Below, one piece after another: positions 24,047 to 53,649 of a stretch of 55,616 nucleotides of DNA. The stretch comes from a virus (Duplodnaviria > Caudoviricetes): positions 1 through 55,616 of IMG/VR virus record IMGVR_UViG_3300005663_000053; one strand, given 5' to 3'. The notes beneath the pieces were generated by a model, which searched no databases, was not told where the DNA came from, and saw only the letters and a list, made by a program, of their open reading frames with translations. Positions within the stretch are counted from its first letter, which is position 1. Every line of letters begins with the position of its first letter. Both the position numbers and the translations under genes were made by a program.

Positions 24047-24176
24047 CTGGCAAGATCATACCCAATGAGGTTAGGACGATCGAGGATCTGGTGCGCTGGA
24101 TCATTGATATGGAGCGCGACGTTGTCGCGTTCCAAGAGGCCTACCTCGGGCGCAAGCGGGAACTGCCTTCCAAGAA

Positions 24177-27791: not shown

Positions 27792-28585
27792 TTGCCGAGG
27801 CCGGCGTCAACCACAATGGCGACGTCGACATCGCGCACAAGCTGGTCGAGGCGGCTGCAAGCGCCGGCGCCGACGCGGTCAAGTTCCAGACCTTCGATGC
27901 GGAGAGATTGGATCCGCCGGGCGCGCGCCGGGAGATGCTGGCCAAGCTCCAGCTCTCGCACGAGGCGCATTTCGCCTTGAAGAAGCAGGCCATGGATCTC
28001 GGCATCGAGTTCATGTCCACGCCGTTCGACCTCGACTCCCTGCGTTTCCTGGTCGAAGATGTCATGGTCGGGACGCTTAAGATCGGCTCCGGCCAGCTCG
28101 ACAACGCCCCGCTGCTTGAGGCCGCACGAATGTCCCCATGCCACCTGATCGTCTCGACTGGCATGGCCACGATGGAGGACGTTGGGCGGGCGCGCGGGGA
28201 GCTCCGGCGCGGCATCATGCTGCACTGCACGAGCGCCTACCCGGCGCCGCCGGCTGACATCAACCTGCGGGCGATGGTAGCTATGCGCGAGAAGCTGGGC
28301 TGCCCCGTCGGGCTTTCCGACCACACCGACAGCACGGCCATCCCGATTGCGGCGGTGGCGCTCGGCGCCGAGGTCATCGAGAAGCACCTGACGCTTGATC
28401 CCTGGATGCGGGGCCCGGACCATGCGGCCTCGCTCGATCCCCATCGCTTTTCTGCGATGGTCACTGGCATCCGCAGTGTCGAACTAGCCCTGGGCGACGG
28501 GGTGAAGCGGCCCCAGGCGAGCGAGGCCGGGGCCATCGAGATCGCCGCCGAGCGGCGCGCTTGGAGGGAAAAGAATGCAAGTTGA
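27779..28585 (+). CDS. neuB: Nonulosonic acid synthase (NeuB/LegI), lacking the C-terminal SAF domain
   Basis: IAEAGVNHNGD, GADAVKFQT, FMSTPFD, STGMA, LHCTSAYP, GLSDHT, IEKHLTLD, GPDHAASL. Confidence 0.95.
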   Translation: MVFVIAEAGVNHNGDVDIAHKLVEAAASAGADAVKFQTFDAERLDPPGARREMLAKLQLSHEAHFALKKQAMDLGIEFMSTPFDLDSLRFLVEDVMVGTLKIGSGQLDNAPLLEAARMSPCHLIVSTGMATMEDVGRARGELRRGIMLHCTSAYPAPPADINLRAMVAMREKLGCPVGLSDHTDSTAIPIAAVALGAEVIEKHLTLDPWMRGPDHAASLDPHRFSAMVTGIRSVELALGDGVKRPQASEAGAIEIAAERRAWREKNAS

Positions 28586-28799
28586 CAGTGCAGACGCCAG
28601 ACCAGATCCACCGGAGGAGTGCGGCAGTTGCGGCCAGGAGGGTGTCGAACTCCATCGGACCTCTTCTTATGGTCCCGGCCATCAGGTCACATGGCATTGT
28701 GATTTCTGTTTTAACTTCATGGATCCCGGCAGCGCCCTCAGCCACAACCTCGCCAAAATGGGGCACATGCTGCTCAAGGCAATTCGCGATAGAGGGTAA
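28575..28799 (+). CDS. Small putative Zn-ribbon protein
   Basis: CGSC and CDFC pairs; coupled to both neighbours. Confidence 0.55.
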   Translation: MQVDSADARPDPPEECGSCGQEGVELHRTSSYGPGHQVTWHCDFCFNFMDPGSALSHNLAKMGHMLLKAIRDRG

Positions 28800-29344
28800 T
28801 GTCTCGCATCGTGATTCTCGGCACCGGCGGCCATGCGCGAACGCTACAGGCGCTTATGGGCTATCCGGCCGACTCCTGTATTTTGACTGATGATGACGAC
28901 GAAGTCCGACCTGATGATTCCGTTCTTATTGGTGTCGGCGACGTGGTGAAGCGCCGGTCGCTTTTTAAGAAATTCCGTTCGCAAGTGCAGGAGATGCGCG
29001 CATCTCGAACCTTCGTTCATACGTCGGTGAAAGTCGGGCGCGGCATCCAGATGATCATGGGCGCGATGATCATGCCAAATTGCCGAATCGGCGACAATGT
29101 GCTGATCAACACCGGTGCCCAGATCGACCACGACTGCAATATTTCGTCACATTGCGTCATCAGCCCCGGTGCGATCCTATGCGGCAACGTGACGCTCGGT
29201 GAGGCATGCTTTATCGGTGCCGGCGCGATCATCGTGCAAGAGGTGACCCTTGAACCCGAGACCTTCATTCCGGCGGGAACGCTCGTGGTAGGACCAGATG
29301 ATCTCCGCCATCCATTGCGGGATGTCGTCTTACCGTCGCAGTAG
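28799..29344 (+). CDS. Hexapeptide-repeat sugar acetyltransferase (NeuD/LegH/PglD family)
   Basis: ILGTGGHA, IGVGD, INTGAQIDHDC, left-handed beta-helix repeats. Confidence 0.9.
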   Translation: MSRIVILGTGGHARTLQALMGYPADSCILTDDDDEVRPDDSVLIGVGDVVKRRSLFKKFRSQVQEMRASRTFVHTSVKVGRGIQMIMGAMIMPNCRIGDNVLINTGAQIDHDCNISSHCVISPGAILCGNVTLGEACFIGAGAIIVQEVTLEPETFIPAGTLVVGPDDLRHPLRDVVLPSQ

Positions 29345-29348
29345 ACCA

Positions 29349-30851
29349 ATGGACATCTGTCTCGTCATCCCGCCATCGACCTTTTTGATGGACGAGCGGG
29401 TATTCCCGAGCCTGGGCGTGTTGAAGATCGCCGCTGTCCTCGAGGCTGCGGGCAAGGATGTCGGCGTTCTGGATCTATCGGGGGTCGAGAACTATCTGGA
29501 CGCGCTCGATGTGTTCCTCGCCGGGTTCACTGGCCGCCACATCGGCATCACTGCGACGACGCCGCAGATGCCGGCCGCGCACCTGATCGCCAAGCGTATC
29601 CGGGAAGTTGCCACCGGTAAGCGCATTATCCTCGGCGGGCCCCACGTCACGCTGGTCCATGCGGCAGCGCGAAAGGAAAAGGAACGCTCGAAATACAGCC
29701 GGGGCAGAAGGGCTCTGGACCAACTCTGCGATCTCTATGAAGTGCTCTCGGTCGGTGATGGCGAGGCGGCGATCTTCGAGGCGATAGGGCCTTGCCGACC
29801 ACCCAAGATTATCGACGCCGACGATCGCAAAGGTCCGCTGTTCCAGACGCGGGACCAGTACGCAGCATCGCCGTTCCCCGCGCGCCACCTGATCGACCTG
29901 GACAGCTACTCCTATGAGATCGAGGGGCATCGGGCGACCAGCCTGATCTCCCAGTTGGGCTGCCCCTTCAACTGCGGCTTCTGCGGCGGCCGGAACTCCT
30001 CGATGCTCAGGGTGATCCGCACCCGACCCGTGGCCACGGTGATCGACGAGCTCACCGAAATCCATGAGGCCTATGGCTACACCGGCTTCATGTTCTACGA
30101 CGACGAGTTGAACGTGAACGAGGCCAGCTTCCTCGAGTTGCTGGATCGGCTCACAGCCCTGCAAGCGCGCCTCGGGACCGAGTTCCGCCTACGAGGCTTT
30201 ATCAAGGCGGAGCTATTCAACGAGGCCCAGGCACGCGCGATGTATGCGGCCGGGTTCCGGTGGCTGCTCTGCGGCTTCGAGGGCGCCGACGACCGGATCC
30301 TGACCAACATCAACAAGAGGGCGACGATCGAGGACAACACGGCTGTGATCAAGGTCGCGCACAAGCACGGCCTGAAGGTCAAGGCGTTGATGTCGATCGG
30401 GCACCCAGGCGAGTCCCGCGCCTCCGTGCTGGCGGTCCGCGACTGGCTGATCGCACAAGAGGCGGACGATTTCGACGTCACCATCATCACGCCCTATCCG
30501 GGCTCGCCTTACCATGACGAGGCGGTGGAGCAAGCCGACGGGTCGTTCACATACGTCCAGCCCGTGACCGGCGATCGCCTCCATATGCGGGAGGTCGACT
30601 ACAATGAGCACGCCGATTACTACAAGGGGATGCCCGGTGAGTACGTTTCGCTGGTCCATACCGACGGCCTGAGCGAAGCGGAGCTGGTGGCGTTGCGCGA
30701 CCAGGTGGAGGCCGAGGTGCGTGAAGCACTGGGGATTCCATTCAGCGCCGTCAACAGGGCCACCAAGTACGAGCACTCGATGGGACAGGGCTTGTCAGAT
30801 CATCTGTTGCGGTCTACTCCAGAGGAATGGGCGCGATCTCAAACCGCCTGA
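29349..30851 (+). CDS. Cobalamin-binding radical SAM protein
   Basis: N-terminal PSLG...LGGPHVT...GDGE B12 domain; GCPFNCGFC; FYDDE; GHPGES; PYPGS. Confidence 0.92.
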   Translation: MDICLVIPPSTFLMDERVFPSLGVLKIAAVLEAAGKDVGVLDLSGVENYLDALDVFLAGFTGRHIGITATTPQMPAAHLIAKRIREVATGKRIILGGPHVTLVHAAARKEKERSKYSRGRRALDQLCDLYEVLSVGDGEAAIFEAIGPCRPPKIIDADDRKGPLFQTRDQYAASPFPARHLIDLDSYSYEIEGHRATSLISQLGCPFNCGFCGGRNSSMLRVIRTRPVATVIDELTEIHEAYGYTGFMFYDDELNVNEASFLELLDRLTALQARLGTEFRLRGFIKAELFNEAQARAMYAAGFRWLLCGFEGADDRILTNINKRATIEDNTAVIKVAHKHGLKVKALMSIGHPGESRASVLAVRDWLIAQEADDFDVTIITPYPGSPYHDEAVEQADGSFTYVQPVTGDRLHMREVDYNEHADYYKGMPGEYVSLVHTDGLSEAELVALRDQVEAEVREALGIPFSAVNRATKYEHSMGQGLSDHLLRSTPEEWARSQTA

Positions 30852-31732
30852 TCTCAGGCACCTGGGCCGCATGGTACGCGGCGACCGAGCCGGTGAGACT
30901 TCGATGGGCCCGCCAGAAGCATGGGGGTGACTATGATGGCCTCAACGATCCGCGGTTTCATGCGCCGCAGAAAAACGCAGACGGTTCATTCACGATCTAC
31001 GGAAGTTCGGACCCGCCGATCAATCCACTGGTCACGGTCTACATCCCGACGCACAACCGGGTCGATCTGTTGATGGAGCGCGCCCTGCCGAGCGTGCTGG
31101 CCCAGACCTATCGCAATATTGAGATTATCGTCGCGGCGCACGGGTGTACTGACGGGACGGCAAGTCGCGTTTGCGGACTCGGCAGACCTAAAACATGTGT
31201 GCTCGGCGTACCGCGCCGGCGCACCTACCCGCCCACGGTAGAGAACCACTGGTTCGCAAAAGAGGTAGCCCCGGCAAATGCCGCTTTGCGGGCGGCGGGC
31301 GGCGCATGGATCGCCCGCCTTGATGACGACGACATCTGGACCCCGGATCACGTCGAGAAGCTGCTGCGCTTCGCCCAGAAAGGCGACTTCGAGTTCGTCT
31401 CAGCGGCCTATGAGCGGGAGCGCGATGGTGTTCGCGAGGTCGTGCCCCATTTTGGATCGGACATAATCGAAGCCCCGTACATCGGCGGTCACCAGACCTG
31501 GCTATATCGCTCGTACCTTCGGTTCATGCGGTACAATCAGGAATGCTGGCGGAAGCGATGGAACCGGGTCAACGACACCGATCTCGCTGATCGATTCTGG
31601 AAAGCGGGCGTGCGCATTGGCTGGCTCGATGAAGTCCTGGCCTACGTTATTCCACGGCCAGGCGAAACGACGGTAGGTTTGGAGGCCTACCGCCGTAACG
31701 CGGTGAACATTGAGCGCGAACTAGCGTTCTGA
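30827..31732 (+). CDS. Glycosyltransferase family 2
   Basis: VTVYIPTHNR, SVLAQTY.NIEIIV, GCTDGT, IARLDDDD. Confidence 0.9.
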   Translation: MGAISNRLISGTWAAWYAATEPVRLRWARQKHGGDYDGLNDPRFHAPQKNADGSFTIYGSSDPPINPLVTVYIPTHNRVDLLMERALPSVLAQTYRNIEIIVAAHGCTDGTASRVCGLGRPKTCVLGVPRRRTYPPTVENHWFAKEVAPANAALRAAGGAWIARLDDDDIWTPDHVEKLLRFAQKGDFEFVSAAYERERDGVREVVPHFGSDIIEAPYIGGHQTWLYRSYLRFMRYNQECWRKRWNRVNDTDLADRFWKAGVRIGWLDEVLAYVIPRPGETTVGLEAYRRNAVNIERELAF

Positions 31733-32133: not shown

Positions 32134-32649
32134 ATGACCTTCAATCCTGTTCAGCAAACGTCCATCCATGGGCGCCGGCTCGGTCTTGGCAGCACGGGTG
32201 CCATCCTGCAAGGGAGCAGCGACGGCACAAAATACGCGGCCCTCATCAGAAGCACGGCCGATATGCTTCAAAACTCGACCGCTCTGTTGGCTTCACAGTG
32301 GGGCCTCAACGCACAGAGCGTGGTGCCAAGTTCCGTAGGCTCGACGCTCACGAACTACGGCCTTGAGAGCCTGTCGTCGGCCTCGGCGACATTGGTCACC
32401 GGCCATCAGCTCGGAACTCCGGTCGTTGGCGTCATCAAGACGATCCACCTCGATTGCAGTGGTTCGGAGATCATCTTCGGCGGCACTTCGACCGCCATGG
32501 TGTTCCGGCCCGCGATCGCGGGTGCCGGCTCGAGCTTGTCCATTGTTCAGCTCCCCTTGGCGGGCACCGTGATCACCCTCATGGGATTCGCCTCCAGCGA
32601 ATGGACGTTGATCTCGGTTGGTTCGTCAGCAGCAGTCGTCATCGGGTAG
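32134..32649 (+). CDS. Ser/Thr-rich putative virion surface protein; shares a domain with 52948..53649
   Basis: AAGGAG RBS; SSVGSTLTN.G...FGGTSTA...GAGS...LAG..ITL.G....W. Confidence 0.7.
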   Translation: MTFNPVQQTSIHGRRLGLGSTGAILQGSSDGTKYAALIRSTADMLQNSTALLASQWGLNAQSVVPSSVGSTLTNYGLESLSSASATLVTGHQLGTPVVGVIKTIHLDCSGSEIIFGGTSTAMVFRPAIAGAGSSLSIVQLPLAGTVITLMGFASSEWTLISVGSSAAVVIG

Positions 32650-42335: not shown

Positions 42336-42345
42336 GGAGGGAATC

Positions 42346-42684
42346 ATGGCTTACGCATCTTCTACGGAAGGTTCCAGCGCCAATGTCCCTCTGCTAATCG
42401 CTCAGGGCATTGCGTCAACTGGATTGGGGTCGTCACTCCCCTCGACGGGGGCCGCAGGCTCGTGGTCACCGCCGAACACGTGGGGTTACAAGTCCACGCA
42501 CGACTCCTCCGACATAGCCGAGGCTGGCTTCTTCACCGATGGCCAACAGCTCGGCATGTCGCTCGGCGATTGTCTGATCGCTTCGAGGTCAACGACCTAC
42601 ATAATCTCGAATCACGTGATCAACGCAGTCACGAGCACGGGCGTTACGGTTTCCGCCGGTCTCATCGTGAGTTCGGCTTCGTAA
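42346..42684 (+). CDS. Putative capsid decoration protein, Ser/Thr-rich
   Basis: Strong AAGGAGG RBS directly after the capsid gene; followed by a terminator. Confidence 0.7.
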   Translation: MAYASSTEGSSANVPLLIAQGIASTGLGSSLPSTGAAGSWSPPNTWGYKSTHDSSDIAEAGFFTDGQQLGMSLGDCLIASRSTTYIISNHVINAVTSTGVTVSAGLIVSSAS

Positions 42685-42707
42685 CCACCTCTCTTAACTC
42701 AACCCTT

Positions 42708-42736
42708 GGGGCGACCTTCTTGGTCGCCCCTTCTCT
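42708..42736 (+). terminator. Intrinsic terminator after the capsid/decoration genes
   Basis: GGGGCGACC-TTCTT-GGTCGCCCC-TTCTCT. Confidence 0.75.
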
Positions 42737-42749
42737 ATGAGGAGAGATC

Positions 42750-43385
42750 ATGCAAGAGACAAAAACTGCGGCGGTTCCCGAGGATCCAGGCGGTCCAGGA
42801 TCCGAAGGTATCGAGACGGCGGTCAAAGGCGACCCAGAAGGTGTCGAGACCCATGCCGAGCCGCCACACGCTGCTACGGTGAAACCCGGATCTCCACCGC
42901 CAGAGCCTCAGCCGCAGCCTCCAGCCCCGGCCCAAGTGGCTCCGGTCCCGGTCCAAGCGGCGCGGCTGCATTTCGGCCGGCTCAAGGAGGCCGAGCACGC
43001 GCGCCGCACCTTGTTCGCCGACATTCCGGCCGGGACAGAAATCGCCACCATTCTCGAGCCCGGCTATTGGGCGCACCACACCGCCTCAATCCGGCCCATG
43101 GACCTGATCGAGGCGTTCTGCGAGGACGGCTCATGGGAGGCGCTTCTACGCGTCATGTTCGTCGGTCGGGTGGAGGTCCGGGTATCACCGATCCATGTGG
43201 TCCAACATGAACAGGCCGATGTCGCCGACCTCACGTCCGATCTGTACGTGGTCAAATGGAGAGGCCCAGGCGCTAAGTGGGGGGTGTTGAACCGCGACAC
43301 CGGCGAGGTGATCAAGGATCGCTTCTACCCCAAGTCCCAGGCCGTCGCCTACCTGCGCGACCATCTGAGGAAAATGAAGACCTGA
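42750..43385 (+). CDS. Hypothetical virion-module protein
   Basis: GAGGAG RBS; Pro-rich N-terminus; PGYWAH, KWRGP. Confidence 0.75.
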   Translation: MQETKTAAVPEDPGGPGSEGIETAVKGDPEGVETHAEPPHAATVKPGSPPPEPQPQPPAPAQVAPVPVQAARLHFGRLKEAEHARRTLFADIPAGTEIATILEPGYWAHHTASIRPMDLIEAFCEDGSWEALLRVMFVGRVEVRVSPIHVVQHEQADVADLTSDLYVVKWRGPGAKWGVLNRDTGEVIKDRFYPKSQAVAYLRDHLRKMKT

Positions 43386-43388
43386 GCC

Positions 43389-44039
43389 ATGGCCACCGAC
43401 CAACTCGCGCTTTACAACATCGCCTTGGCCGCGGTCGGCGAACGCTCGATTGCTTCTCTTACCGAGGGACGCGAGCCGCGGCGCTTACTCGATGAAATCT
43501 GGAATCGCGGTGCCGGAGCGATCGAGTATTTCCTTGAGCAGGGCTACTGGAATTTCGCCATCCGCACGGTACAGATCGACCGCTCGACGTCCGTGTCGAC
43601 CTCCTTCGGATTCACCTATGTCTTCGATATACCCACGGACTACATCCGCTTGGTCCAGCTTTCGGCGGGCGAATATTTCGATGATCCGCTTGTCCGCTAT
43701 GAACCCGAGCAGGCCTTCATCTACGCCGACGTCGACCCGATCTATATGCGCTACATCTCGGACGACGCGAGCTTCGGCAACGATCTCACCCTGTGGCCGG
43801 AGACCTTCACACTATGGGCGGGCCATTGGCTTGCGACACAGATCGGCGCGCGCTTCCTGAACGACGCCGACTACAAGGAACTTCAGTTGAAGACGAAAAG
43901 GTATCTCATCGACGCCCGCTCCAAGGACGCCGCCCAGGAGCCGCCGCGGTGGCCGCCGTTATCTTCTTGGGCGAGGGCGCGGTTCGGCCGCTCTACCGGG
44001 CGCCGCGACCGTGGCTCAAGGGGCCAGTTGATCGGGTAA
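43389..44039 (+). CDS. Tail adaptor / tubular protein A (T7 gp11-like)
   Basis: YNIALAAVGE..IASL, WNFA, F.IPTDYIR, Y...W...F, DA. Confidence 0.8.
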   Translation: MATDQLALYNIALAAVGERSIASLTEGREPRRLLDEIWNRGAGAIEYFLEQGYWNFAIRTVQIDRSTSVSTSFGFTYVFDIPTDYIRLVQLSAGEYFDDPLVRYEPEQAFIYADVDPIYMRYISDDASFGNDLTLWPETFTLWAGHWLATQIGARFLNDADYKELQLKTKRYLIDARSKDAAQEPPRWPPLSSWARARFGRSTGRRDRGSRGQLIG

Positions 44040-44046
44040 AGGAAGG

Positions 44047-44167
44047 GTGCGGGCAGGGTTTCCCGCCCTGCTACCGAGCCACCTGTCTGGTATTTCACCG
44101 GACCAAGCTCTCTGACAGACCGCACTAACAGGCGCAGCCTCACCCCGACGCTGTCACGCCGCCGCAC
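44047..44167 (-). ncRNA. Candidate structured small RNA with tRNA-like closing stem and T-arm-like hairpin
   Basis: Minus strand 5' GTGCGG pairs with 3' CCGCAC, directly preceded by a GCAGGG/CCCTGC hairpin; TACAAT at 44179-44174 puts the start at about 44167. Confidence 0.45.
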
Positions 44168-44207
44168 GCTCGAATTGTAATGCCATCATAATCGGATTGT
44201 AAGTCGC

Positions 44208-46940
44208 ATGGCTCGCACGAACGCCCCGTTGGTCGTGTTCAACCGCGGAAGAATCTCGGCCCTCGGCCTAGCCCGCGTCGACCTCGACCGCACCAGGCTC
44301 TCCGCCGAGGTGCAGACCAACTTCATGCCGCGCACCCTCGGCTCGATGATGCTCCGGCCCGGACTCGAGTACATCGGCACGATCCGCAACTCATCGACCG
44401 CGGTCCTACTGCCCTTCATCTTCTCGGCCACCGACACCGCGCTCATCGAGCTGACCTCGACGGCGATGCGGGTGTGGCGCAGCGATGCCGTCATCACCCG
44501 TGCCGCCTCGACTGCGGCGATCACCGGAGGCACCTTTACCTCTACCTCGCTCGCTGGCTGGACAGACGCCGACGAGTCGGGCTCGACCTCGGGGTGGTTC
44601 ACCGGCAACTACATGAGCTTGGTCGGCTCCCGATACGCCCAGGCGATCCGTCGTCAAACCATTACATCGACATCGACATCTATCACGCAAGGACTCACCA
44701 CGGTCATCGCACGCGGCCGGGTCAACTTGAGGATCGGGTCTTCCGCCGGGGCCGATGATTATTTCCGTGAAGCGAGCCTGAGACCAGGCACCTACTCGCT
44801 CGCCATTGCCTCAACCGGGAACTTTTACATCGAGTTCTCGGCCAACACCTACTATCGGAGCCTCGTCGAGTCGATCGCGGTCGAATCGTCCGGCGACATG
44901 GTAATCGGCACGACTTGGGCCGGTGCCGATCTTAGCCGGCTCAGATGGGATCCATCGGCCGATGTCATATTCGTCGCCAACTCCAGCTATCAGCAGAAGC
45001 GCATTGAGCGCTACGGGGCGGAGTCCTGGGGCATGGCGGATTACGAGCCCCAAGACGGCCCGTTCCGCAATCCGAATATCACTGCCAAACGGCTCACTCC
45101 CTCGGCGCTTCAGGGCAACATCACGCTGGAGTGCGACAAGCCGCTGTTCGACCCGAATCATATCGGGGCCCTGTTCCGCATAACTTCGGTAGGCCAGGAA
45201 GTGTCGATCACGCTTTCCGGGGCGGACCAATGGTCAGATCCGATTCGGGTCACTGGCGTCGATTTGGGCAGCGATGGCACCACGGACCACACTCGCACTT
45301 TCGATATTTCCATTACGGCGAGCTCTACATTCACGGCGACTGTCAGACTGCAACGGTCACAAGGTTCGACAGATGATTGGGGAGACATCAGGTCACCGTC
45401 GCTGATATGGACCAACACGACAGCCACGAAATCATTTGATGATCAAAAGGACAATGAAATCATCTTCTACCGCATCGGCGTTGGCTCGACTTACACTTCG
45501 GGTTCGCCGGTATGTGCTTTGAGCATTCCGTCTGGCGGAATCACAGGAATCGTGCGCATCACCTCGGTTGCCGCCGCGACAGAAAGCTCGGCTTCTGTGC
45601 TCGTCGCGCTCGGCTCGACCAGGCCGACCGAGTTGTGGCAAGAGGGCGAGTGGAGTGACTTCCGGGGCTGGCCATCCGCCGTATCGTTCCACGAGGGGCG
45701 TCTGTATTGGGCGGGCAAGGCGAAGATTTGGGGCTCAATCTCCGACGCCTATGAATCCTTCGATCCCGATGTCGAAGGCGATTCAGGCGTAATCAATCGC
45801 TCAATAGCTTTCGGAGCGGTCGACAACATTGAGTGGCTCGCCTCCTTAGGCCGGCTCATTATCGGCACCGGGATGCGCGAGCTGCAGGCCAAGACCGGAT
45901 CCTTGGATGAACCCATCACCCCCTCGAACTTCAACTTGCGCGACATCTCGAACCAGGGATCGGGCAACGTCCAAGCGGTCAAGGTCGATAAGCGCCTGCT
46001 GAGCGTCCAACAGGGCGGCGTGCGCGTCATGGAGACTGGCTACTCGGGCGAATCGCTCGACTATGAGACCGCCGACCGGACGGTCCTCGTCCCGGAGATG
46101 GGCGAGCCGTCGATTGCTAGGATGGCGGTACAGCGCCAGCCGGACACGCGAATCCATTGCGTGCGCGGGGCCACCGACGGCACGGTCGCCGTGCTGGTCT
46201 CCGACCCCGCCGAGGATGTGACGGCCTGGATAGACATCGAGACTGGCGACGCCGATGGGATAAACGGCGTGATCGAGGAGGTCGCGGTGCTCCCCGATTC
46301 GGTCGAGGATGCGGTCTATTACATCGTGCGCCGTGAGATCAACGGATCGACCGTCCGCTATCTTGAAAAGTGGGCGCAGGAAGCGCAGGGGCGCGGCGGC
46401 TCCTCGAACCGGCTCGCCGATTCATTCACGGTCTACGATGGCACCGCTGCAACGTTAATCCCGAGCACGCACCTCGTGGGCTCGAGCGTGATCGCGTGGG
46501 GCTCGACCGCCGATCTCGGCAGCTACACCGTCGATTCAACCGGCGGCGTTACCATCTCTCAGGCATCGACCACGGTGTGCATTGGCCTGCCGTACACCGG
46601 GTTCTACCGAACGGCCAAGCTCGCCTATGCGGTTCCTTCTTCGCTGGGCACCGCATTGACGCAGAGAAAGCGGGTCAACCATATCGGCTTGGTGTTGGCC
46701 GACGCCCACGCCCAAGGCCTTGAGTATGGACCATCGACCGACACTCTCGATCCTCTACCACTCATGTCGGCCGGGGCCACCATCTCGACCGACGCCGTGA
46801 ACGCCACCTTCGATGAAGAGTCCATCGAGTTTCCCGGTGAGTGGGACACGGATTCCAGGATCGTGCTGCGCGCGACGGCACCCCGGCCAGTGACCGTGCT
46901 CGGCATGGTGATCCAGATCGAAACGAAAGAGAAGACATGA
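44208..46940 (+). CDS. Tail nozzle / tubular protein B (T7 gp12-like)
   Basis: FNRGRIS...R.DL, RPGLEYI, GWPSAVSFHEGRL, YLEK, GLPY; 910 aa, beta-rich. Confidence 0.85.
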   Translation: MARTNAPLVVFNRGRISALGLARVDLDRTRLSAEVQTNFMPRTLGSMMLRPGLEYIGTIRNSSTAVLLPFIFSATDTALIELTSTAMRVWRSDAVITRAASTAAITGGTFTSTSLAGWTDADESGSTSGWFTGNYMSLVGSRYAQAIRRQTITSTSTSITQGLTTVIARGRVNLRIGSSAGADDYFREASLRPGTYSLAIASTGNFYIEFSANTYYRSLVESIAVESSGDMVIGTTWAGADLSRLRWDPSADVIFVANSSYQQKRIERYGAESWGMADYEPQDGPFRNPNITAKRLTPSALQGNITLECDKPLFDPNHIGALFRITSVGQEVSITLSGADQWSDPIRVTGVDLGSDGTTDHTRTFDISITASSTFTATVRLQRSQGSTDDWGDIRSPSLIWTNTTATKSFDDQKDNEIIFYRIGVGSTYTSGSPVCALSIPSGGITGIVRITSVAAATESSASVLVALGSTRPTELWQEGEWSDFRGWPSAVSFHEGRLYWAGKAKIWGSISDAYESFDPDVEGDSGVINRSIAFGAVDNIEWLASLGRLIIGTGMRELQAKTGSLDEPITPSNFNLRDISNQGSGNVQAVKVDKRLLSVQQGGVRVMETGYSGESLDYETADRTVLVPEMGEPSIARMAVQRQPDTRIHCVRGATDGTVAVLVSDPAEDVTAWIDIETGDADGINGVIEEVAVLPDSVEDAVYYIVRREINGSTVRYLEKWAQEAQGRGGSSNRLADSFTVYDGTAATLIPSTHLVGSSVIAWGSTADLGSYTVDSTGGVTISQASTTVCIGLPYTGFYRTAKLAYAVPSSLGTALTQRKRVNHIGLVLADAHAQGLEYGPSTDTLDPLPLMSAGATISTDAVNATFDEESIEFPGEWDTDSRIVLRATAPRPVTVLGMVIQIETKEKT

Positions 46941-47266
46941 TCACGGTCCGCCCGGCGACCCGCGCCGACTTCGTCGATTTCTATGGAACAGCCCCGCCGA
47001 TGACGGTGCGCGCCCTCGCCGCCGAATCGACGGCCGGAGAGGTTCTAGGCATCGGCGGCTATTACTTGAGCGACGGCGTGGTACTGGCTTTCACCGATTA
47101 TCACGAGGCCATGAGTAAGCGCGATCGGGTCAAGGGGGCCCACGCGCTGGTCGCCATGCTGAGGGAACTCGGAATCGAGGTGGTCGCGCACATGGGCGAG
47201 GATGGCGCGACGGCGCTCAAGCATTTTGGCTTCGAGGCTTGGGGCATGTTCTGGAGAATGAAATGA
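46937..47266 (+). CDS. GNAT-like virion assembly protein (T7 gp13-like)
   Basis: VRPATRAD...LKHFGF; position after the nozzle gene. Confidence 0.6.
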   Translation: MITVRPATRADFVDFYGTAPPMTVRALAAESTAGEVLGIGGYYLSDGVVLAFTDYHEAMSKRDRVKGAHALVAMLRELGIEVVAHMGEDGATALKHFGFEAWGMFWRMK

Positions 47267-47919
47267 CTGGCATCGAGACGGGTATCATGCTCGGCACCTA
47301 CGCCGTCACCGCAGGCGACGTGATGATGGTGGCCTCCACCCTCATTGGTGTCGTCGGCCAAATGCAGCAGGCCTCGGCGCAACAGGCGGCGGGCCAAGCG
47401 CAAGCCGCCGCCGCTGCCCATCGGGCGGCGATCGCCAACCGCCAAGCCCAAGTCATGGAGCAGCAGGCGGGCCAGGAGCGCGCGGTTTCCCAGCGCGCGG
47501 CACAAGAGGAAAGGCGGCGCGGTAGGTTTGTCTCCTCCCGGGTTCAGGCGCTCTCGGCGGCCTCGGGAGCCGGCGCACTCGATCCCACCATCGTCGGCAT
47601 CCTTGGCGACATCGGCACCGAGGAAGAAACCCGGGCCTTGACCGCGCTCTATGAGGGCGAGGAGAGGGCCAGGGGTCTTGAATACGGTGCCACGCTCGAG
47701 CGTGCGGGCGGGGCCGGGGCGCTCTTTGCTGGACAAGCGGCGCGGCGCGCCGGCCGGTCTGCGGCGGCGCGGTCCCGGCTCTCCGCCGCCGGTACACTTC
47801 TCGAAGGCGGCTCCTCTCTATTCGCCAAGTACAGCCCCGAATCTCCGACAGGCGGAGGCTCCACTTACTACACCCGGCGATCGTCTCGCGGCGGCGTTCG
47901 CCGATATTCCTACGGGTAA
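47263..47919 (+). CDS. Internal virion / ejection protein (gp14-like)
   Basis: Ala/Gly/Gln-rich; AASGAG; synteny. Confidence 0.7.
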   Translation: MTGIETGIMLGTYAVTAGDVMMVASTLIGVVGQMQQASAQQAAGQAQAAAAAHRAAIANRQAQVMEQQAGQERAVSQRAAQEERRRGRFVSSRVQALSAASGAGALDPTIVGILGDIGTEEETRALTALYEGEERARGLEYGATLERAGGAGALFAGQAARRAGRSAAARSRLSAAGTLLEGGSSLFAKYSPESPTGGGSTYYTRRSSRGGVRRYSYG

Positions 47920-47922
47920 ACC

Positions 47923-49758
47923 ATGCCAAAACTTCCAGATGTAACGGCCCTCGGAGGCCGTCCCACCCCGCGCGCGACGCGGGGCGTACAAGATGTGGCC
48001 GTGGCCGGCCGCGGGGTGCAGGCCGCTGCCGATATTTTCTCTCGAGAAGCGGCGCAAACAGGAACCGAGCTGGGCGCGCTCGCGCAGAGTCTGGGCGAAG
48101 CCGGGGATATATTCGCCCAAGCAGAAGCCCGCATTAGGAAAAGAGAAGATCTGATAGCGGTTACAAAGGCGGAAGCCGCCTATGATCAAGGCATGCGAGA
48201 AAGGTTCAATGCGATCTCGACCGAACAGGACTGGGCACTGATCAAAACGGGCACCGAATATCGGGACTTCTCCTCTCAATCCAGGCAAAACGCGCTCACC
48301 GGTTTCTCGGGCTCGGTCGATGCTCGCGCCGCCTTCGAAGCCAGCCTTTATAAGAGACACAACTCCTGGATGGGCAAAGCGGCAGCGGAAACGCTGGGCG
48401 CGCAAAACGCCTTCTTCCTTGGCCAGATCGAGGAGGGCGCCGCCGATCTGCAAAGGCGTGCATTCGAAAATCCGAGCGCCGCTCTATCTTTGTTAGTCGA
48501 AGCCGATGCCTTGGTCGACAAGCACGCCCCTGGTCTCAAGCCGGAGCAAGAACGGTTCACCAGAGCCGATACATACTCACGGATCATCACCGGCGCGGTG
48601 GATAGACTAATCGCCCAAGGCGAGATCGACGATGCCGAGGAGATCGTGCTCGATCCCGCAGTGCGTGGCGTCCTCGGAACTGAGTCTCAAGGCGACCTCT
48701 TCCGGCGCCTCACCAACGCGAGGATAGAAATTGCCAATCGCGGCCTTACGGGCGCGGCCGCGGGTGCAGCCACGATTGAAGAAGCGACTGCCATTCTTGG
48801 GCGCGAGCCCGGACCAGGGGAGCGTATTCAATTAGCTGGGTTCGAAGAAGTGGTGCCGGTGCGACCGGATGTACTTGATGAAACTGGCGCAATCAAACGT
48901 GATGCTTCGGCGGAGATTCGTCGGCAAGCCGTACAACTTCTCGGTGGTAGCGAAACAACGGCGCTGCCCGCAGATGTAGCCCGTGCCGCCCAGGAACTTG
49001 GCGCCGAGACCGAAAAAATCCTTGAGGCGGGAGAGGAAGATAGTATCGGCCAGGCCGTGGCGTTGGCCACAAAACGGGTTGATTTGCCCGAAGCACTTTC
49101 CTTCCCTGAGATCGCAGACCGAGGCATAGCGGCAATCGAGCAAGAAACGGCCGAGGGTCCGACAGAAGCCGAGTTGGCCAGCGCCGAGCAAAAACTTCGG
49201 GTGCAGGACGCGACTGGTGCGGTGTCCGCCTTCATTGACTTCTTCGGCAACAGGATCGTCGGCCAAATCGATCCCTCATATGTTGACCCGGACATCGTTA
49301 CCGCACGTCAACGCTTGGCGCTTCTTGAGACCGAGTTTGTCGTGGCATTCAGGCGCAGCCCTCGACTTCCGGTTTGGGAGCAGGTGAAGTTGTCGCGGAT
49401 CTTCCAGGGGCCAGCGATTCTCAGATCACCCGAGGCCGTCCGGGTAGAGCTTCAAACGATAGAACAGTTGCTTACCGACCATATCGAGATCAATCGCAGG
49501 CTCTTAGAGGCCCCTCTGCCGATAGAAATGAAATCAGAAGCCCTTGGCGAGATTATGAGCCTCGCTGGCTTCCGGGCGCGCATCAGGAACTTTGAACTTA
49601 ACCCGGCGTTCCCTGAGTTCCGCACGGTGGAAGATGTCGGTGCAGGATCGATAGAGGAGTTGAGGGCCTTCGTCGAAAGAACGCCGGAGGAAGAGCTAAA
49701 CCTCCTTCCGCCAGAGGTGGTCGACCTCATGGCCGACAGATTGACGAAGGGGCAATAA
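47923..49758 (+). CDS. Internal virion / ejection protein
   Basis: MPKLP start, 611 aa alpha-helical composition; synteny. Confidence 0.65.
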   Translation: MPKLPDVTALGGRPTPRATRGVQDVAVAGRGVQAAADIFSREAAQTGTELGALAQSLGEAGDIFAQAEARIRKREDLIAVTKAEAAYDQGMRERFNAISTEQDWALIKTGTEYRDFSSQSRQNALTGFSGSVDARAAFEASLYKRHNSWMGKAAAETLGAQNAFFLGQIEEGAADLQRRAFENPSAALSLLVEADALVDKHAPGLKPEQERFTRADTYSRIITGAVDRLIAQGEIDDAEEIVLDPAVRGVLGTESQGDLFRRLTNARIEIANRGLTGAAAGAATIEEATAILGREPGPGERIQLAGFEEVVPVRPDVLDETGAIKRDASAEIRRQAVQLLGGSETTALPADVARAAQELGAETEKILEAGEEDSIGQAVALATKRVDLPEALSFPEIADRGIAAIEQETAEGPTEAELASAEQKLRVQDATGAVSAFIDFFGNRIVGQIDPSYVDPDIVTARQRLALLETEFVVAFRRSPRLPVWEQVKLSRIFQGPAILRSPEAVRVELQTIEQLLTDHIEINRRLLEAPLPIEMKSEALGEIMSLAGFRARIRNFELNPAFPEFRTVEDVGAGSIEELRAFVERTPEEELNLLPPEVVDLMADRLTKGQ

Positions 49759-49761
49759 GGC

Positions 49762-52638
49762 ATGCCCGAGCTCCCCGGAAAATCCGAGAGGACCACAGCC
49801 GTTTCTGTCCTGCCAGAGACCACAATGGCGGAAGAAGGTGAATCGCCTCAAGGCGGCGCGGCGCTCAAGGCGTTGGTGCAACCCAAGGCAGATCCAGAGC
49901 TTTCATTGGGGGGGCCCTCCCGGCTGCAACAGACATCGCCTGGGCTTTTGGCCCCAGAAGAACGATCGGCCGGAGCCAACCTGAAAGCATTGGCCGGTCG
50001 GGGCACATGGCAGGAGTACATATGGGGCATCAACACGGCGATCGCCGACACTCTGGATTTCGCGCCGGATGCCTTCGCGGAGTTGTTTCGAAGGTTCGGC
50101 ATCAGCGCATCAAAAGGCACAGTGCGCGACGTCTTCGCAGGCTTTGGCTGGACTCCGCCGAGAGGGCAGGAGCCGGATACCAGGGCATTCTCCGCCGGGC
50201 ACATGCACGGGGTGGCCGCCATGTTGGCACTCCCGGTGCCGAAGGCGGCTGGGCTTCGTCCGCTAGGAGTCCGCCCGACAGCGCTCCCAACCGGAGGGCC
50301 GAGGGAAGCCATTGTCCGTGGCGTTAAAGAGATAGGCGAGACCGCAGTGCGCCAGCCAGAAAGATTTGCGGCCATTGAATCCGTGTCCGCCGCGGCGGCC
50401 GGAGTCGGTATCTACGAGGCGCGGAAACGCTTCCCTGATTCGCCTGCGGCCGAAGCCCTTGGCGCAATCTTGTTTGGCCTGACACCGGCAGGACTTATTG
50501 CCGCGCCAGGGGCCATAGTTCGAGGAACGCTTGCTGTTGGCAGGCATTTGCCGGTCTCGGGAACCGTCATACGAATCGCGTCCAATATCCTTCAACGGGC
50601 CAGGGAATTTTTCACTGTAAGCGGCGCAACCGCGCGGGCTCGGGCGCGTATGACCCGTGCCGTCGAGGAGCCAGAGGCGGCATTAGCCCGTATGGAAGAG
50701 CCGGGGGTGCTCCCGGAGGCGAAATTGACGCCCGCCCAGCAAACCGGCGAACCTGGGGTGCTGGCTTTGGAGCGGTCCGTCATGGAGAGTAGCGATACGG
50801 CTGTTTTCCAGGCGGATGAGCAGATTGCCGAACTCAACGCCACGATAATACAATCCCTGGAAGCCCCGAGGGGTCAGGTCGCAGTAACCAAGGAGCATTT
50901 CGAAGCCGCGCAAGCCTACCTCCTGTCTTTGCTTGATGGGCGACTCCGCATCGCGGCCCTGGAAGCGGACAGGCGCATCGCAGCTCTTACATCGGGGAAA
51001 ACCCCCAAAGAAGCCAACACGATAGCGGCGCAGGAACTGGATAAGGCGCATGTAGCGGCCCGGGCAACCGAGGAGGAGCTTTACGCGGTTCTGCCCATTG
51101 ATCTCGAGGTTCTGCCAACCACTACGAGAAGCACCCTCAAAATAGAGCTGATGTGGCGCGGGCGGACGGCCGACCCGGAGGACATCCCGGTCTTCGTGAC
51201 CGAGTTCCTGGGCGGGCTGAACAGAAAGGGCAAGTTCGTCGGCGGCACGCTCGCCAAGGGCGCCACGTTTGAGGAGATGCGCGTTTTCAGGAGCCGGGTT
51301 CTCGGTGAGATACGCGCCGAACGGGCCAAGCTACGCACGGGAACGGGAAGTCGGAACAAGGTGCGGATTCTCGAGGATATTCAAGAAGCCATCTTGGCAG
51401 ATCTCGGAGCCCTGAGGGGCCAAGTCTCTGGCGAGGCTGGCCAAGATCTGCGTATCGCGCTGGACTTCTCATACTCTCTCAATGAGAGATTTACCCGCGG
51501 CCCCGTGGGGCGGCTCCTCGGCGCGGAAAGGCGTGGGGGGCCGGCAGTACCGGAGGCATTGACGCTTGAGACGACATTGGGAATAAGGGGCGCGAAGGCG
51601 GGGGAGAACGCGCGCGCCATGATCAAGGCTGTCCAGGACAATCCCGATGAACTTCTGGGCGCGGCCGAGGACTTCATCAAGGCCCGGTTCGTCAAGGACG
51701 CCATCAGGAATCAGCGGATCGACCAAGGTAAGGCGGAGGCGTTCCTGCGCAACAATAAGGAGCTCCTGGATGAATTCCCAGGCGTCCGGTCGGACATAGA
51801 GGCCGCGATCCAGAATGACAGTGCCTTGCTGGTCGCCGAGCGGCGGGCCGAAAGCATCGGCTCCAAGCTTGCGAACCCGCGCATTTCCAAGGCGGCGCTG
51901 TTTATCCGCTCCGATCCCCAAAAGGCTTTCGAGGCTGTGAGAACCATGCGCGATCCCGGGGTGGAAATGCAGAACCTCGTCAATCTCGCGGCGCGCGACG
52001 CAACCGGCGAGGCGACTGAGGGGCTACAGGCGGCATATCTGGACTGGCTTCTGACTCGTGCGATGATCGCGCAAACCGATATCGCCGGCCGTCCTTATGT
52101 GTCCGGGATGAGGCTCCGCAACGCCTTGCAAGACGAAGCCACGCAAGCGATGTCGGCGCGCGTGTTGACGGCGGAGCAGCAAGAACGCTTGGGTCAAACT
52201 CTCGAAACGGCCTTGCGTTTTGACATGATTCGGAGGGCGCGGCCGGCGCGCGAGGGAATCATCGGCGATATTCCCAACATCATGATCGAGTCGATGGCGC
52301 GTATCGGTATCTTGCGGGCCATATCACGGATTGGCGGCGGGTTCGGCACGATCCAGGTTCCAGGCATGATCTCGGCAAGAGTGCGCAGCATGATTCAATC
52401 GCATGTCAAAGACCCGGCGACGCGGCTCATCATTGATGCGGTGATGACCGAAGATCCCGCGCTCATGAAGGCGCTTCTCATGGATTTGAGTAAACCGGAA
52501 AACGTGAAGTTTGTTCGCCGACAGCTTCACGCTTGGATAGCTGGTTTATTGTGGGAGGTCGGGGGCGCGGAGCGTGAAGAGGCTGGCCCCCCGCCAAACG
52601 TTCAACAACAAGCCATCAGCCGCGGCAGCTTCCTATAA
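49762..52638 (+). CDS. Large internal virion / ejection protein
   Basis: 958 aa helical with Gly/Ala hydrophobic segments; synteny. Confidence 0.65.
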   Translation: MPELPGKSERTTAVSVLPETTMAEEGESPQGGAALKALVQPKADPELSLGGPSRLQQTSPGLLAPEERSAGANLKALAGRGTWQEYIWGINTAIADTLDFAPDAFAELFRRFGISASKGTVRDVFAGFGWTPPRGQEPDTRAFSAGHMHGVAAMLALPVPKAAGLRPLGVRPTALPTGGPREAIVRGVKEIGETAVRQPERFAAIESVSAAAAGVGIYEARKRFPDSPAAEALGAILFGLTPAGLIAAPGAIVRGTLAVGRHLPVSGTVIRIASNILQRAREFFTVSGATARARARMTRAVEEPEAALARMEEPGVLPEAKLTPAQQTGEPGVLALERSVMESSDTAVFQADEQIAELNATIIQSLEAPRGQVAVTKEHFEAAQAYLLSLLDGRLRIAALEADRRIAALTSGKTPKEANTIAAQELDKAHVAARATEEELYAVLPIDLEVLPTTTRSTLKIELMWRGRTADPEDIPVFVTEFLGGLNRKGKFVGGTLAKGATFEEMRVFRSRVLGEIRAERAKLRTGTGSRNKVRILEDIQEAILADLGALRGQVSGEAGQDLRIALDFSYSLNERFTRGPVGRLLGAERRGGPAVPEALTLETTLGIRGAKAGENARAMIKAVQDNPDELLGAAEDFIKARFVKDAIRNQRIDQGKAEAFLRNNKELLDEFPGVRSDIEAAIQNDSALLVAERRAESIGSKLANPRISKAALFIRSDPQKAFEAVRTMRDPGVEMQNLVNLAARDATGEATEGLQAAYLDWLLTRAMIAQTDIAGRPYVSGMRLRNALQDEATQAMSARVLTAEQQERLGQTLETALRFDMIRRARPAREGIIGDIPNIMIESMARIGILRAISRIGGGFGTIQVPGMISARVRSMIQSHVKDPATRLIIDAVMTEDPALMKALLMDLSKPENVKFVRRQLHAWIAGLLWEVGGAEREEAGPPPNVQQQAISRGSFL

Positions 52639-52646
52639 GCAGCCGC

Positions 52647-52901
52647 TCATCTGTAGCCGTAATCGTAGGGATCACGGGTCAACTCTTCTTGTGAGCCTAC
52701 GCCAAAGCCTGTCTCGCCTGATCTGAGACCATCATAAGGATCAGCATAGGGCTGCGGCTGTAACCGCTCGAATATCCGGTCACCCTCTTGTTGGTCCAAC
52801 CACCGCTCGGTGCCATAGGCCTCCCACGACGGCAGGTTGTGCATCGATGCATGCGCCGGAGCGACGGACGCGAACGCGAAGATTGCGAGGATTATCCACA
52901 T
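52647..52901 (-). CDS. Small exported protein (inverted moron), resembles 5436..5732
   Basis: AGGAGG RBS; signal peptide ending PAHA; C-terminal LTRDPYDYGY. Confidence 0.65.
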   Translation of the reverse strand: MWIILAIFAFASVAPAHASMHNLPSWEAYGTERWLDQQEGDRIFERLQPQPYADPYDGLRSGETGFGVGSQEELTRDPYDYGYR

Positions 52902-52947
52902 GACCGCTTCCTCCTGATTGGGCTGCACACTTTGTGAGGTTTTCTAA

Positions 52948-53649
52948 ATGCCGTCAACCATAACCGACAGGCTCCGCGGCTTGACCACCTCGGTCGCCGT
53001 CAAGGCACCTGTGCTCCTCGCCTCGACTGGCAACATCCCGCTCGCCTCGACCGGGGACATCGACGGTGTCACGCCCTCGACCGGAATCCGCGCGCTGTTC
53101 AAGGATCAGACGACCGACACCGAGAACGGCATTTATTCGTTCAACGGCTCGACCTGGGGCCGGGAGGCCGACTTCGACGGCCAGCGCGATTCGGTGCGCG
53201 GCACCCTGGTGTATGTCTCGACCGGACTGTTGAACGCTGAAGCCTGGTTCGTCGTCACCTCGACCGGCGTTCCCGGATCGACGGTTGCCGTCACCTTCGC
53301 GCGAGCAAATTTCCCGGTAGCCGTGGGCGCGGTTGCCAGCAGCGTTGGCTCGACGTTGACCAATGCGGGGTTCACCAGCCTGTCGTCATCGTCCTCAACG
53401 GCCCTCACATTTGAGATCGCGGCGCCGGCGATTGGTGTGCGAAAGGAAATCCACATTGATACCAGCGCCTCCGAGATCTCGTTCGGTGGCACCTCAACCG
53501 CGATCATCTTCAAGGGAACTGCCGGCGGGGCTGGATCAACCCTGTTCCTTTCAGGGGTGAATCTCGCGGGCGCGACGATCACGCTTAGGGGCATGTCCAC
53601 TGCCCAGTGGGCGAACATCGGCTCCACCGCGGTGGTCACTATTGGATGA
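52948..53649 (+). CDS. Short tail-fibre/spike-like protein, Ser-Thr rich
   Basis: N-terminal AVKAPV...IDGV...LFKDQT...ENGIY...W.R..DFD fibre-base module. Confidence 0.72.
   Translation: MPSTITDRLRGLTTSVAVKAPVLLASTGNIPLASTGDIDGVTPSTGIRALFKDQTTDTENGIYSFNGSTWGREADFDGQRDSVRGTLVYVSTGLLNAEAWFVVTSTGVPGSTVAVTFARANFPVAVGAVASSVGSTLTNAGFTSLSSSSSTALTFEIAAPAIGVRKEIHIDTSASEISFGGTSTAIIFKGTAGGAGSTLFLSGVNLAGATITLRGMSTAQWANIGSTAVVTIG

Follow-up and report, generated by a model that had tools for sequence, protein, structure and literature searches.

Ordered Ser-Thr pairs in tail proteins of a podovirus-type phage clade as possible acceptor sites for a phage-encoded nonulosonic acid

The virus record IMGVR_UViG_3300005663_000053 (55,616 bases; this whole stretch is referred to below as the window) is full-length, carries direct terminal repeats, has a G+C content of about 62% and is a complete podovirus-type phage genome with a glycosylation island at approximately 18.1-34.5 kb. 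Several of its structural proteins, foremost a 233-amino-acid (aa) tail-fibre-like protein (p233) and the tail nozzle, contain more Ser-Thr dipeptides (ST, in this order) than their serine (S) and threonine (T) contents predict, and the excess recurs in two sister phages. This order-specific excess is real and is not explained by the nozzle or fibre fold. An initial annotation, made from the sequence alone, had proposed that the pairs are acceptor sites for O-glycosylation. We regard this as the best available explanation, one that may well be right but that we hold with a little less than even confidence, as it comes from the genes and sequences of one clade.

Results

Ser-Thr pairs exceed compositional expectation

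To evaluate the excess, 70 open reading frames (ORFs) of the window were hand-picked by length, third-position G+C and non-overlap, and each was compared with 5000 composition-preserving shuffles (coordinates of all features are in Table 1). In p233, which has 28 S and 33 T, 14 ST and 5 TS pairs are found where 3.97 ST are expected (p 0.0002, the floor of the test). This is the strongest ST excess in the window and the sole one to survive Bonferroni correction for 70 tests. The nozzle (19 ST and 10 TS; 9.81 ST expected, p 0.002) and the 112-aa protein (6 ST and 1 TS; 2.16 ST expected, p 0.006) show nominal excesses. When dipeptides are ranked by enrichment, ST comes first in p233 and the 112-aa protein and second in the nozzle. 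The by-eye ST and TS counts of the initial annotation all proved exact on recount, and its contention that the pairs exceed what S and T composition would give holds for p233 and, nominally, for the two other proteins. Confining the shuffles to blocks of 15 or 30 residues left the ST results unchanged; local S/T-rich patches, considered as a cause of the excess, are thus ruled out.

The order of the two residues matters. Summed over p233, the nozzle, the 112-aa protein and a 171-aa protein encoded in the island, ST pairs number 44 and TS pairs 18, as against 46 and 46 in the remaining 66 ORFs. The preference for ST over TS, which the initial annotation had noted in p233 and the 112-aa protein, is confirmed and holds for the four proteins taken together; the 114-aa S/T-rich protein at the edge of the island has four of each and shows no bias, as the initial annotation had itself remarked.

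Other parts of the original picture had to be given up. Neither the 171-aa protein (5 ST and 2 TS; 2.58 ST expected, p 0.084) nor the 114-aa protein (1.84 ST expected, p 0.090), both listed as ST-enriched, is significantly so in the window. The adaptor, cited for its RSTSVSTS stretch, has 3 ST where 0.84 are expected, a nominal p of 0.038 only, and the excess is absent from sister phages: the adaptors of L011, L047 and L056 hold 0 ST and that of G011 holds 1 (here and below, L numbers denote loci and G numbers records). It was therefore rejected as a member of the pattern. A restriction of the excess to exposed proteins was borne out only in part. The major capsid protein is exposed yet not enriched (1 ST and 2 TS), and a 760-aa T-rich protein with a fibre-like C-terminus, with 5 ST against 6.1 expected, likewise speaks against such a restriction. 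The large internal proteins are merely S/T-poor: with 1 ST and 0 TS in the 611-aa protein and 1 ST and 2 TS in the 958-aa protein, their ST observed/expected ratios (0.67 and 0.40, respectively) do not depart significantly from expectation.

The excess is found in sister phages and not in other orthologues

The nozzle was compared in 41 full-length orthologues from viral contigs together with the nozzles of the window and of G011, for a total of 43 proteins. When these are ranked by ST observed/expected, the top three are the window (1.94), G006 (locus L011; 16 ST vs 8.7 expected, 1.83) and G011 (23 ST vs 10.7 expected, p 3e-4). The range in this three-member clade is 1.83-2.16, as opposed to 0.33-1.32, with a median of 0.78, in the 40 remaining orthologues. 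Of 101 dipeptides tested, ST deviates most in the nozzles of the window and of G006 (z 3.1 and 2.9); TS, SS and TT are no outliers there. Pooling the three clade nozzles gives 58 ST and 28 TS, vs 232 and 257 in the 40 orthologues (Fisher p 7e-4). Clade nozzles are 57-62% identical to one another and at most 49% identical to the rest. Three of the alignment columns with ST are common to all three and 14 to two of them; 8, 2 and 11 are unique to a single nozzle.

A similar picture emerged from tail fibres. Another 80 fibres share the N-terminal domain of p233; their ST observed/expected lies between 0 and 1.78, vs 3.5 in the window protein, and the first 125 aa contain 0-4 ST, vs 8 in p233. Hence, in line with what the initial annotation implied, nozzle and fibre orthologues from phages without the sugar genes do not show the excess. 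One fibre among the 80, L068 (11 ST vs 6.2), is nominally enriched in ST, and it was presumed to come from a clade member on the basis of 71% capsid identity. Its record, G011, was then found to hold a homologue of the island's Maf-like genes described below (E 2e-68), with a member of the 171-aa protein family directly upstream, and has the full sugar cluster and the GT2-family glycosyltransferase gene as well. Four other fibre records checked for a Maf-like gene or a 171-aa family member have neither.

In G006 the excess extends to the fibre (13 ST vs 6.8), the capsid-adjacent small protein (5 vs 1.9) and the 171-aa family member (6 vs 2.5). The terminase, portal and capsid proteins of this phage have 0-1 ST, and the 543-aa and 1204-aa proteins encoded downstream of its nozzle have 0 and 1, respectively. 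The G006 fibre is 33% identical to p233 overall; their C-terminal parts cannot be aligned, and only 2 ST columns are common to both. Fibres, capsids and portals encoded at nozzle loci outside the clade show no ST excess.

The family of the 112-aa protein, a decoration candidate of the initial annotation, has 4-5 ST in the sister loci L008, L011, L047 and L056. Homologues in phages without sugar genes have 0-2, except for L041 (118 aa), which has 5; neither a Maf-like gene nor a GT2 gene was found in the L041 record. The homologue of the 114-aa protein in G006 is 50% identical and has 3 ST vs 1.9 expected; a 41% tblastn match is present in the sugar region of G011.

Sequence context was analysed for the 101 ST pairs of ten enriched proteins from the window, G006 and L008. 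The residue preceding the pair (position -1) is preferentially G (2.5-fold), T or P, the one following it (+1) G or A (approximately 2-fold), and position -2 favours Y, F, I and L (approximately 2-fold).

The island encodes a nonulosonic acid pathway

All six enzyme types of the legionaminic acid pathway (dehydratase, aminotransferase, acetyltransferase, 2-epimerase, synthase and CMP-transferase) are represented in the island, as judged from Pfam and NCBIfam matches. PseB, PseC and PseI models score much lower than LegB and LegC models on the window genes. By these assignments the island encodes a complete pathway for a nonulosonic acid of the legionaminic acid type, including the CMP-activating enzyme. 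As none of the Leg-specific models reaches its cut-off, the assignment goes no further than this type of sugar. The amidination genes WbuX and WbuZ are present as well, and the product probably carries an acetamidino group.

The GT2 gene is conserved next to the 171-aa family and is also present in L006, L008, L009 and L010. Among 42 related records, 12 of which are at least 90% complete, a GT2 orthologue occurs in exactly two, G006 and G011, and these are the two with a nozzle ST excess. G006 also has WbuX, a dehydratase-like gene, a 171-aa family member and a Maf-like gene. Five proviruses whose nozzle is 45% identical have no NeuB, GT2, 171-aa family or Maf-like gene, and no excess. The Maf-like family, taken in a broad sense, occurs in 4 of 41 records (G006, G007, G008 and G044).

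Two adjacent genes encode proteins with a Maf / sialyltransferase fold

The last two genes of the island encode paralogues that are 43% identical to each other; relatives have a single copy. Pfam, PHROG and Protein Data Bank (PDB) sequence searches with the two proteins returned nothing significant. A profile built from seven close members retrieved 2982 representative proteins at E <= 0.001, most of them about 220-300 aa long, in a family named by neither Pfam nor PHROGs; the query's own Atlas cluster is 89% viral.

The structure of paralogue 2, its start taken at the ATG following a TTG at 33516, was modelled with AlphaFold2 (AF2) from an alignment of 60 family members (mean pLDDT, the predicted local distance difference test score, 87.7). 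In Foldseek, the N-terminal 210 residues of the model match the sialyltransferase Cst-II (1ro7; E 2e-3, probability 1.0), the archaeal kinase MptE (8sd5) and human ST6GALNAC2, these three with probabilities of 0.97-1.0, and the Pasteurella sialyltransferase; entries 2p2v and 9c08 are matched as well, and TM scores are modest (0.37/0.46). With VIA-align, the best match for the catalytic domain is the Maf flagellin glycosyltransferase 5mu5_A (Z 10.8, root-mean-square deviation 3.2 over 158 residues), with model residues 25-212 superposed on chain residues 272-499. MptE 8sd5 matches with Z 10.2, and the other high-scoring entries belong to the C-terminal coiled-coil hairpin. The full Maf architecture is absent: only residues 272-499 of the 632-aa Maf align, and residues 214-318 of the model form the hairpin. 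On the strength of the Foldseek and VIA-align matches, we name the paralogues Maf / sialyltransferase-fold enzymes, outside the Pfam PF01973 family, and infer that they may work as enzymes of the Maf group do. Genes of this kind are linked to nonulosonic acid genes in the window, L008, L010 and G011.

A small S/T-rich protein family adjoins the Maf-like gene

Homologues of p233 fall into two families by alignment, one covering residues 1 to about 120 and the other residues 128 to 233, approximately. Many phage tail fibres and tailspikes begin with the N-terminal domain, a fibre or tailspike anchor (tblastn and PHROG searches); its PHROG matches are to fibre, head-decoration and virion proteins. 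In proviruses L001-L005 (about 19.4-22.6 kb in each locus), the fibre with this domain continues into a C-terminal part of 400-500 residues and not into the 105-aa domain of p233. The latter is found elsewhere as free-standing proteins of 135-190 aa, including the 171-aa protein of the island. The 171-aa protein is thus paralogous to the C-terminal half of p233, and two ST positions (GSTLTN and TSTA) occur in both, so that the ST counts of the initial annotation for these two proteins are not independent of each other.

Neither Pfam nor PHROGs gave a match for the 171-aa family; in the Atlas, all of its neighbours are viral and lead only to domains of the tail-fibre type. Members are strikingly ST-rich in L008, L009 and L010 (11-12 ST vs 3.2-3.6 expected, p 0.0002) and also in L006 (8 vs 2.8). 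The family member lies directly upstream of the Maf-like gene in the window, L006-L010, G006 and G011, which makes eight of nine close loci; L152 is the exception. A small S/T-rich ORF precedes the Maf-like gene also in the distant records G007 (132 aa, 5 ST vs 2.4) and G008 (118 aa, 3 vs 1.5). A complex prediction for the Maf-like protein with the 171-aa protein scored 0.00 without controls and hence gives no verdict.

In the AF2 model of p233, the N-terminal domain has pLDDT values mostly above 85, and all seven of its ST pairs are in coil or turn, directly after or between strands. A Foldseek search with the p233 model gave no match at E <= 0.001.

Discussion

The proposal that ST pairs are O-glycosylation acceptor sites withstood the comparisons with shuffled compositions and with orthologues, and an apparatus for glycosylation is encoded in the same genome. 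Such a role would jointly explain the specificity for the order ST, the small number of virion proteins concerned, the recurrence of the excess in a fibre whose C-terminal part does not align with p233, and the ST-rich small protein encoded between two kinds of transferase gene.

Several observations weigh against it. All positive cases fall in one clade of three phages, so that the co-occurrence of sugar genes and excess may go back to a single evolutionary event. G007, G008 and G044 have a member of the Maf-like family and nozzle observed/expected ratios of 0.98, 0.94 and 0.50, respectively, so that having some gene of this family does not in itself predict an ST-rich nozzle. G008 has NeuB and no excess; conversely, G006 has the excess, and no NeuB was found in its record (31.5 kb, 39% complete). 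The exposed capsid lacks the enrichment, and firm enrichment is missing in the window also from the adaptor and from the 114-aa and 171-aa proteins. The 171-aa family is not always ST-rich (p 0.08 for the window copy; 4 ST vs 2.9 in L007; 2 vs 2.15 in G011), and several of its pairs are highly conserved among members 40-60% identical and precede hydrophobic stretches, as could be expected of structural and not of exposed positions. In p233, the placement of ST pairs in coil or turn applies to the N-terminal domain; the C-terminal one came out with pLDDT 40-65 and no secondary structure. As to the enzymes, no Pfam model matches either paralogue, the seven close members or the 60 family members, and PF01973 finds nothing in the window at E <= 1; the sole lead is an Atlas cluster, scoring 0.78, where PF01973 is present in 16% of the proteins. 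A profile search against PDB sequences had GT42 enzymes in its top seven rows, with alignments of 37-40 residues that are not significant (E 0.27-0.4). Finally, the known Maf systems are described as having no sequon (PMC11339370).

A rather doubtful but serious alternative is that the excess is a habit of the clade with no relation to glycosylation, such as the use of turn-forming pairs (xSTG, GSTx) in beta-rich tail proteins. The island would then modify the surface polysaccharide, flagellin or pili of the host, thereby blocking superinfection or changing adsorption, or else would act only on the small proteins. Confinement of both features to one clade, and the existence of phages with Maf-like genes or NeuB and no nozzle excess, are as this alternative would have them. 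In the N-terminal domain of p233, the ST pairs are at strand ends, where distant homologues have TT, SG or AA; many ST pairs of the 171-aa family show the kind of conservation seen at core positions; and the 112-aa family keeps two conserved ST pairs even where the phage has no sugar genes at all. Phage enzymes that alter host nonulosonic acid capsules are also on record (PMC12053666). On the other hand, 40 orthologues with the same nozzle fold show no excess. The excess is specific to one order of the two residues, and it reappears in the G006 fibre, in a C-terminal part that cannot be aligned with that of p233. In the nozzle, ST positions turn over among sister phages and the excess is kept. 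The 171-aa protein, moreover, has its domain in common with the tail fibre and sits between transferase genes.

Less probable still is that virion proteins are glycosylated but ST is not the motif. Any accessible Ser or Thr could be used, the ST excess being a by-product (adjacent hydroxyls raising occupancy), or only the 171-aa and 114-aa proteins could be acceptors. Maf-type systems are without a known sequon (PMC11339370), the flanking preferences found here are loose, and the nozzles of the clade are somewhat richer in S (10.0-11.6%, vs a mean of 9.3%) and in T (9.5-10.2%, vs a mean of 8.6%). A general demand for hydroxyls, however, would raise TS, SS and TT too, and these are not raised.

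Chance, in the form of a few nominal p-values among 70 proteins, is a very improbable source of the pattern. It is true that p233 alone survives the Bonferroni correction and that NeuB, a cytoplasmic enzyme, reaches p 0.016 (3 ST, 0.56 expected). Yet the same proteins are enriched in two sisters and the clade nozzles are the top three of 43; replication in G006 and G011 makes chance unlikely.

The codons were also inspected. Among the 70 window ORFs, TCG encodes the serine in 50 of 90 ST pairs, whereas for serines elsewhere the figure is 270 of 825 (odds ratio 2.6, p 4e-5), and TCGACN is found at 14 of the 19 nozzle ST pairs. The TCGAC word occurs 105 times in frame 1 vs 49 times in frame 0. 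In G006, ST pairs are mostly TCC-ACN, and TCGAC is found at only 2 of the 16 pairs in a nozzle with the same excess; the preference of the window for TCG before Thr, whether as a codon pair or as a TCGA word, was not found in this sister. That the excess arose from the DNA, through a preference for the TCGAC word or for certain codon pairs and not through selection on the protein, is hardly credible, because G006 keeps the excess with other codons, the excess is limited to few genes although the codon preference is genome-wide, and TCGAC is mostly in another reading frame, all of which places the excess at the protein level.

If ST pairs do serve as glycosylation sites, the enzymes of the island would, during infection, O-glycosylate Ser/Thr residues of p233, the nozzle, the 112-aa protein and the 171-aa protein. 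The GT2 enzyme could place the first sugar or act directly on the protein, and the sialyltransferase-fold enzymes would add the nonulosonic acid. Some GT2 enzymes O-glycosylate flagellins; our assignment of roles draws on this precedent, on co-occurrence and on fold. Selection for more acceptor sites could have raised the number of Ser-Thr pairs in these proteins, within a preferred context that would be loose: hydrophobic at -2, G, T or P at -1, and G or A at +1. The benefit, more speculatively, might be a hydrophilic, acidic tail coat that alters adsorption, stability or recognition. Taken as a whole, the scheme in which this podovirus clade puts its own legionaminic-acid-type sugar on nozzle, fibres and small proteins, by means of a GT2 enzyme and a compact sialyltransferase-fold family with ordered Ser-Thr as preferred acceptor, is tentative, and somewhat unlikely to hold in every part.

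The closest parallel is with Maf systems. Maf enzymes O-glycosylate surface-exposed Ser/Thr residues of flagellin with nonulosonic acids, and the modified residues tend to have apolar flanks (PMC11339370). The hydrophobic enrichment at -2 of the ST pairs in the window, G006 and L008 resembles these flanks, the proposed sites being likewise Ser/Thr with apolar neighbours. As in the Maf flagellin islands of Campylobacter, Aeromonas, Clostridium and Magnetospirillum, nonulosonic acid genes lie beside a transferase with the same catalytic fold, and the gene for an S/T-rich structural protein adjoins the enzyme gene. Unlike Maf, the window enzymes are phage-encoded, measure about 290-320 aa vs 632 aa (5mu5_A), and have a coiled-coil hairpin instead of the Maf flanking domains; the proposed acceptors are tail proteins and not flagellin. 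Since Maf has no known sequon, an ordered ST preference would be new. The best Foldseek matches are GT42 sialyltransferases (Cst-II and Cst-I of Campylobacter jejuni and the Pasteurella lipooligosaccharide enzyme), a likeness by which the donor would be a CMP-nonulosonic acid; in sequence, however, the match is not significant (E 0.27), and GT42 enzymes sialylate lipooligosaccharide sugars, not protein.

Among phages, glycosylation of a phage's own structural proteins by phage glycosyltransferases is described for mycobacteriophages (Freeman et al. 2023, as cited in PMC12619734); in the open-access papers and preprints searched, self-glycosylation of virions was found only for this group. In these siphoviruses of actinobacteria, it is the capsid and tail tube subunits that carry glycans, at their C-termini. 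The window differs in that the candidates are the nozzle, fibre and small accessory proteins of a podovirus, that the phage would make its own nine-carbon acidic sugar, and that dispersed ST pairs take the place of terminal extensions. In Acinetobacter baumannii phages, the epaA and epaB products and O-acetyltransferases act on pseudaminic or legionaminic acid chemistry (PMC12053666, PMC6586298). These enzymes change the host capsule, and they include neither a full pathway with transferases beside structural genes nor ST-rich virion proteins. We found no report, in open-access papers and preprints, of phage virions with nonulosonic acids or of phage Maf-like transferases.

Should the whole scheme be correct, it would provide the first sequon-like signal for protein glycosylation with nonulosonic acids, and no earlier case of a phage virion with a coat of sialic-acid-like sugar would precede it. 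With ST pairs as acceptor sites, glycosylated phage proteins would become predictable from sequence alone, an unnamed and mostly viral enzyme family of 2982 representatives would gain a function, and glyco-engineering with nonulosonic acids would have an acceptor rule to work from. If the tail wears an acidic sugar coat, this would matter, too, for host recognition and for the way immune systems perceive phage particles.

Other features of the window

Table 1. Features of the window relevant to the Ser-Thr analysis, with search results where available. Scores are in bits where so marked; "cut-off" refers to the NCBIfam model. The nonulosonic acid biosynthesis genes (19569..29344) are on the + strand.

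Feature	Position	Strand	Remarks
760-aa protein, fibre-like C-terminus	15239-17521		
114-aa S/T-rich protein	18110..18454	+	At sugar-island edge
NTP transferase	19569-20255		
CMP-sugar synthetase	20669-21295		PF02348, 76 bits
Radical SAM/SPASM enzyme	21292-22260		
HNH endonuclease, homing-type	22257-22703		Between radical SAM/SPASM gene and WbuX
WbuX	22643-24046		NCBIfam 289 vs cut-off 203, passes
WbuZ/HisF-like	24177-24938		
LegB-like dehydratase	24935-25900		NCBIfam best match LegB, 329 bits vs cut-off 475, below
LegC-like aminotransferase	25855-26826		Best match LegC family, 230 vs cut-off 420, below
NeuC-like hydrolysing 2-epimerase	ends 27791		NCBIfam NeuC, 253 vs cut-off 235.9, passes
NeuB synthase	27779-28585		
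NeuD-family acetyltransferase	28799-29344		
B12-binding radical SAM enzyme	29298..30851	+	Pfam Radical_SAM plus B12-binding
GT2-family glycosyltransferase	30827..31732	+	Pfam Glycos_transf_2, E 8.6e-18
171-aa protein, candidate cognate acceptor	32134..32649	+	Between GT2 and Maf-like genes
Maf / sialyltransferase-fold paralogue 1, 289 aa	32650..33519	+	
Maf / sialyltransferase-fold paralogue 2, about 319 aa	33519..34478	+	C-terminal coiled-coil hairpin
Terminase	34478-36067		
Portal	36815-38503		
340-aa protein	38887-39909		phrog_3742, function unknown
Radical SAM domain protein	39910-40794		Inside head module, between 340-aa protein and capsid gene
Major capsid protein	41448-42335		
112-aa protein	42346..42684	+	Directly 3' of major capsid gene; phrog_18004, function unknown
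Adaptor (tail tubular protein A type)	43389..44039	+	
Nozzle, 910 aa (tail tubular protein B type)	44208..46940	+	phrog_376 tail protein, E 1.8e-140
Internal virion protein	47239-47919		phrog_418
Two large unannotated ORFs, 611 and 958 aa	47923-49758, 49762-52638		Internal ejection proteins of the initial annotation
p233, 233-aa tail-fibre-like protein	52948..53649	+	
Cell-wall hydrolase	54090-54683		

A megablast search with positions 36000-55616 against annotated phages found no close DNA relatives. In the sugar island, the longest ORFs of the LegC-like and NeuC-like genes (25855-27791) overlap by about 360 bases; as the NeuC match begins at residue 159 of the 441-aa ORF, the true start of the latter gene is probably at about 26.8-26.9 kb. 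The best NCBIfam matches of the B12-binding radical SAM enzyme are to methyltransferase or dehydratase types, all below cut-off. No homologue of this enzyme is present in the syntenic sugar clusters of L008-L010, G006 or G011, and it is likely to provide an extra sugar modification specific to the window.

A gene 56% identical to the Maf-like gene is found on L152:1-2008, a 2-kb contig binned with a metagenome-assembled genome of the Kiloniellaceae, with a methyltransferase-like ORF upstream of it and a terminase start on its other side; as a lead to the host this contig is too weak to put a name to it. The radical SAM domain protein of the head module has counterparts of 50-64% identity in L008, L011, L047, L056 and G011 and is absent from the other nozzle loci. 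Upstream of the island, the gene for the 760-aa protein precedes one for a 185-aa protein whose start resembles a signal peptide (the two span 15239-18079), and neither protein has a Pfam match. Threonine accounts for 97 residues of the 760-aa protein, which has a hydrophobic segment in its N-terminal part and matches the tail fibre phrog_11355 in its C-terminal part.

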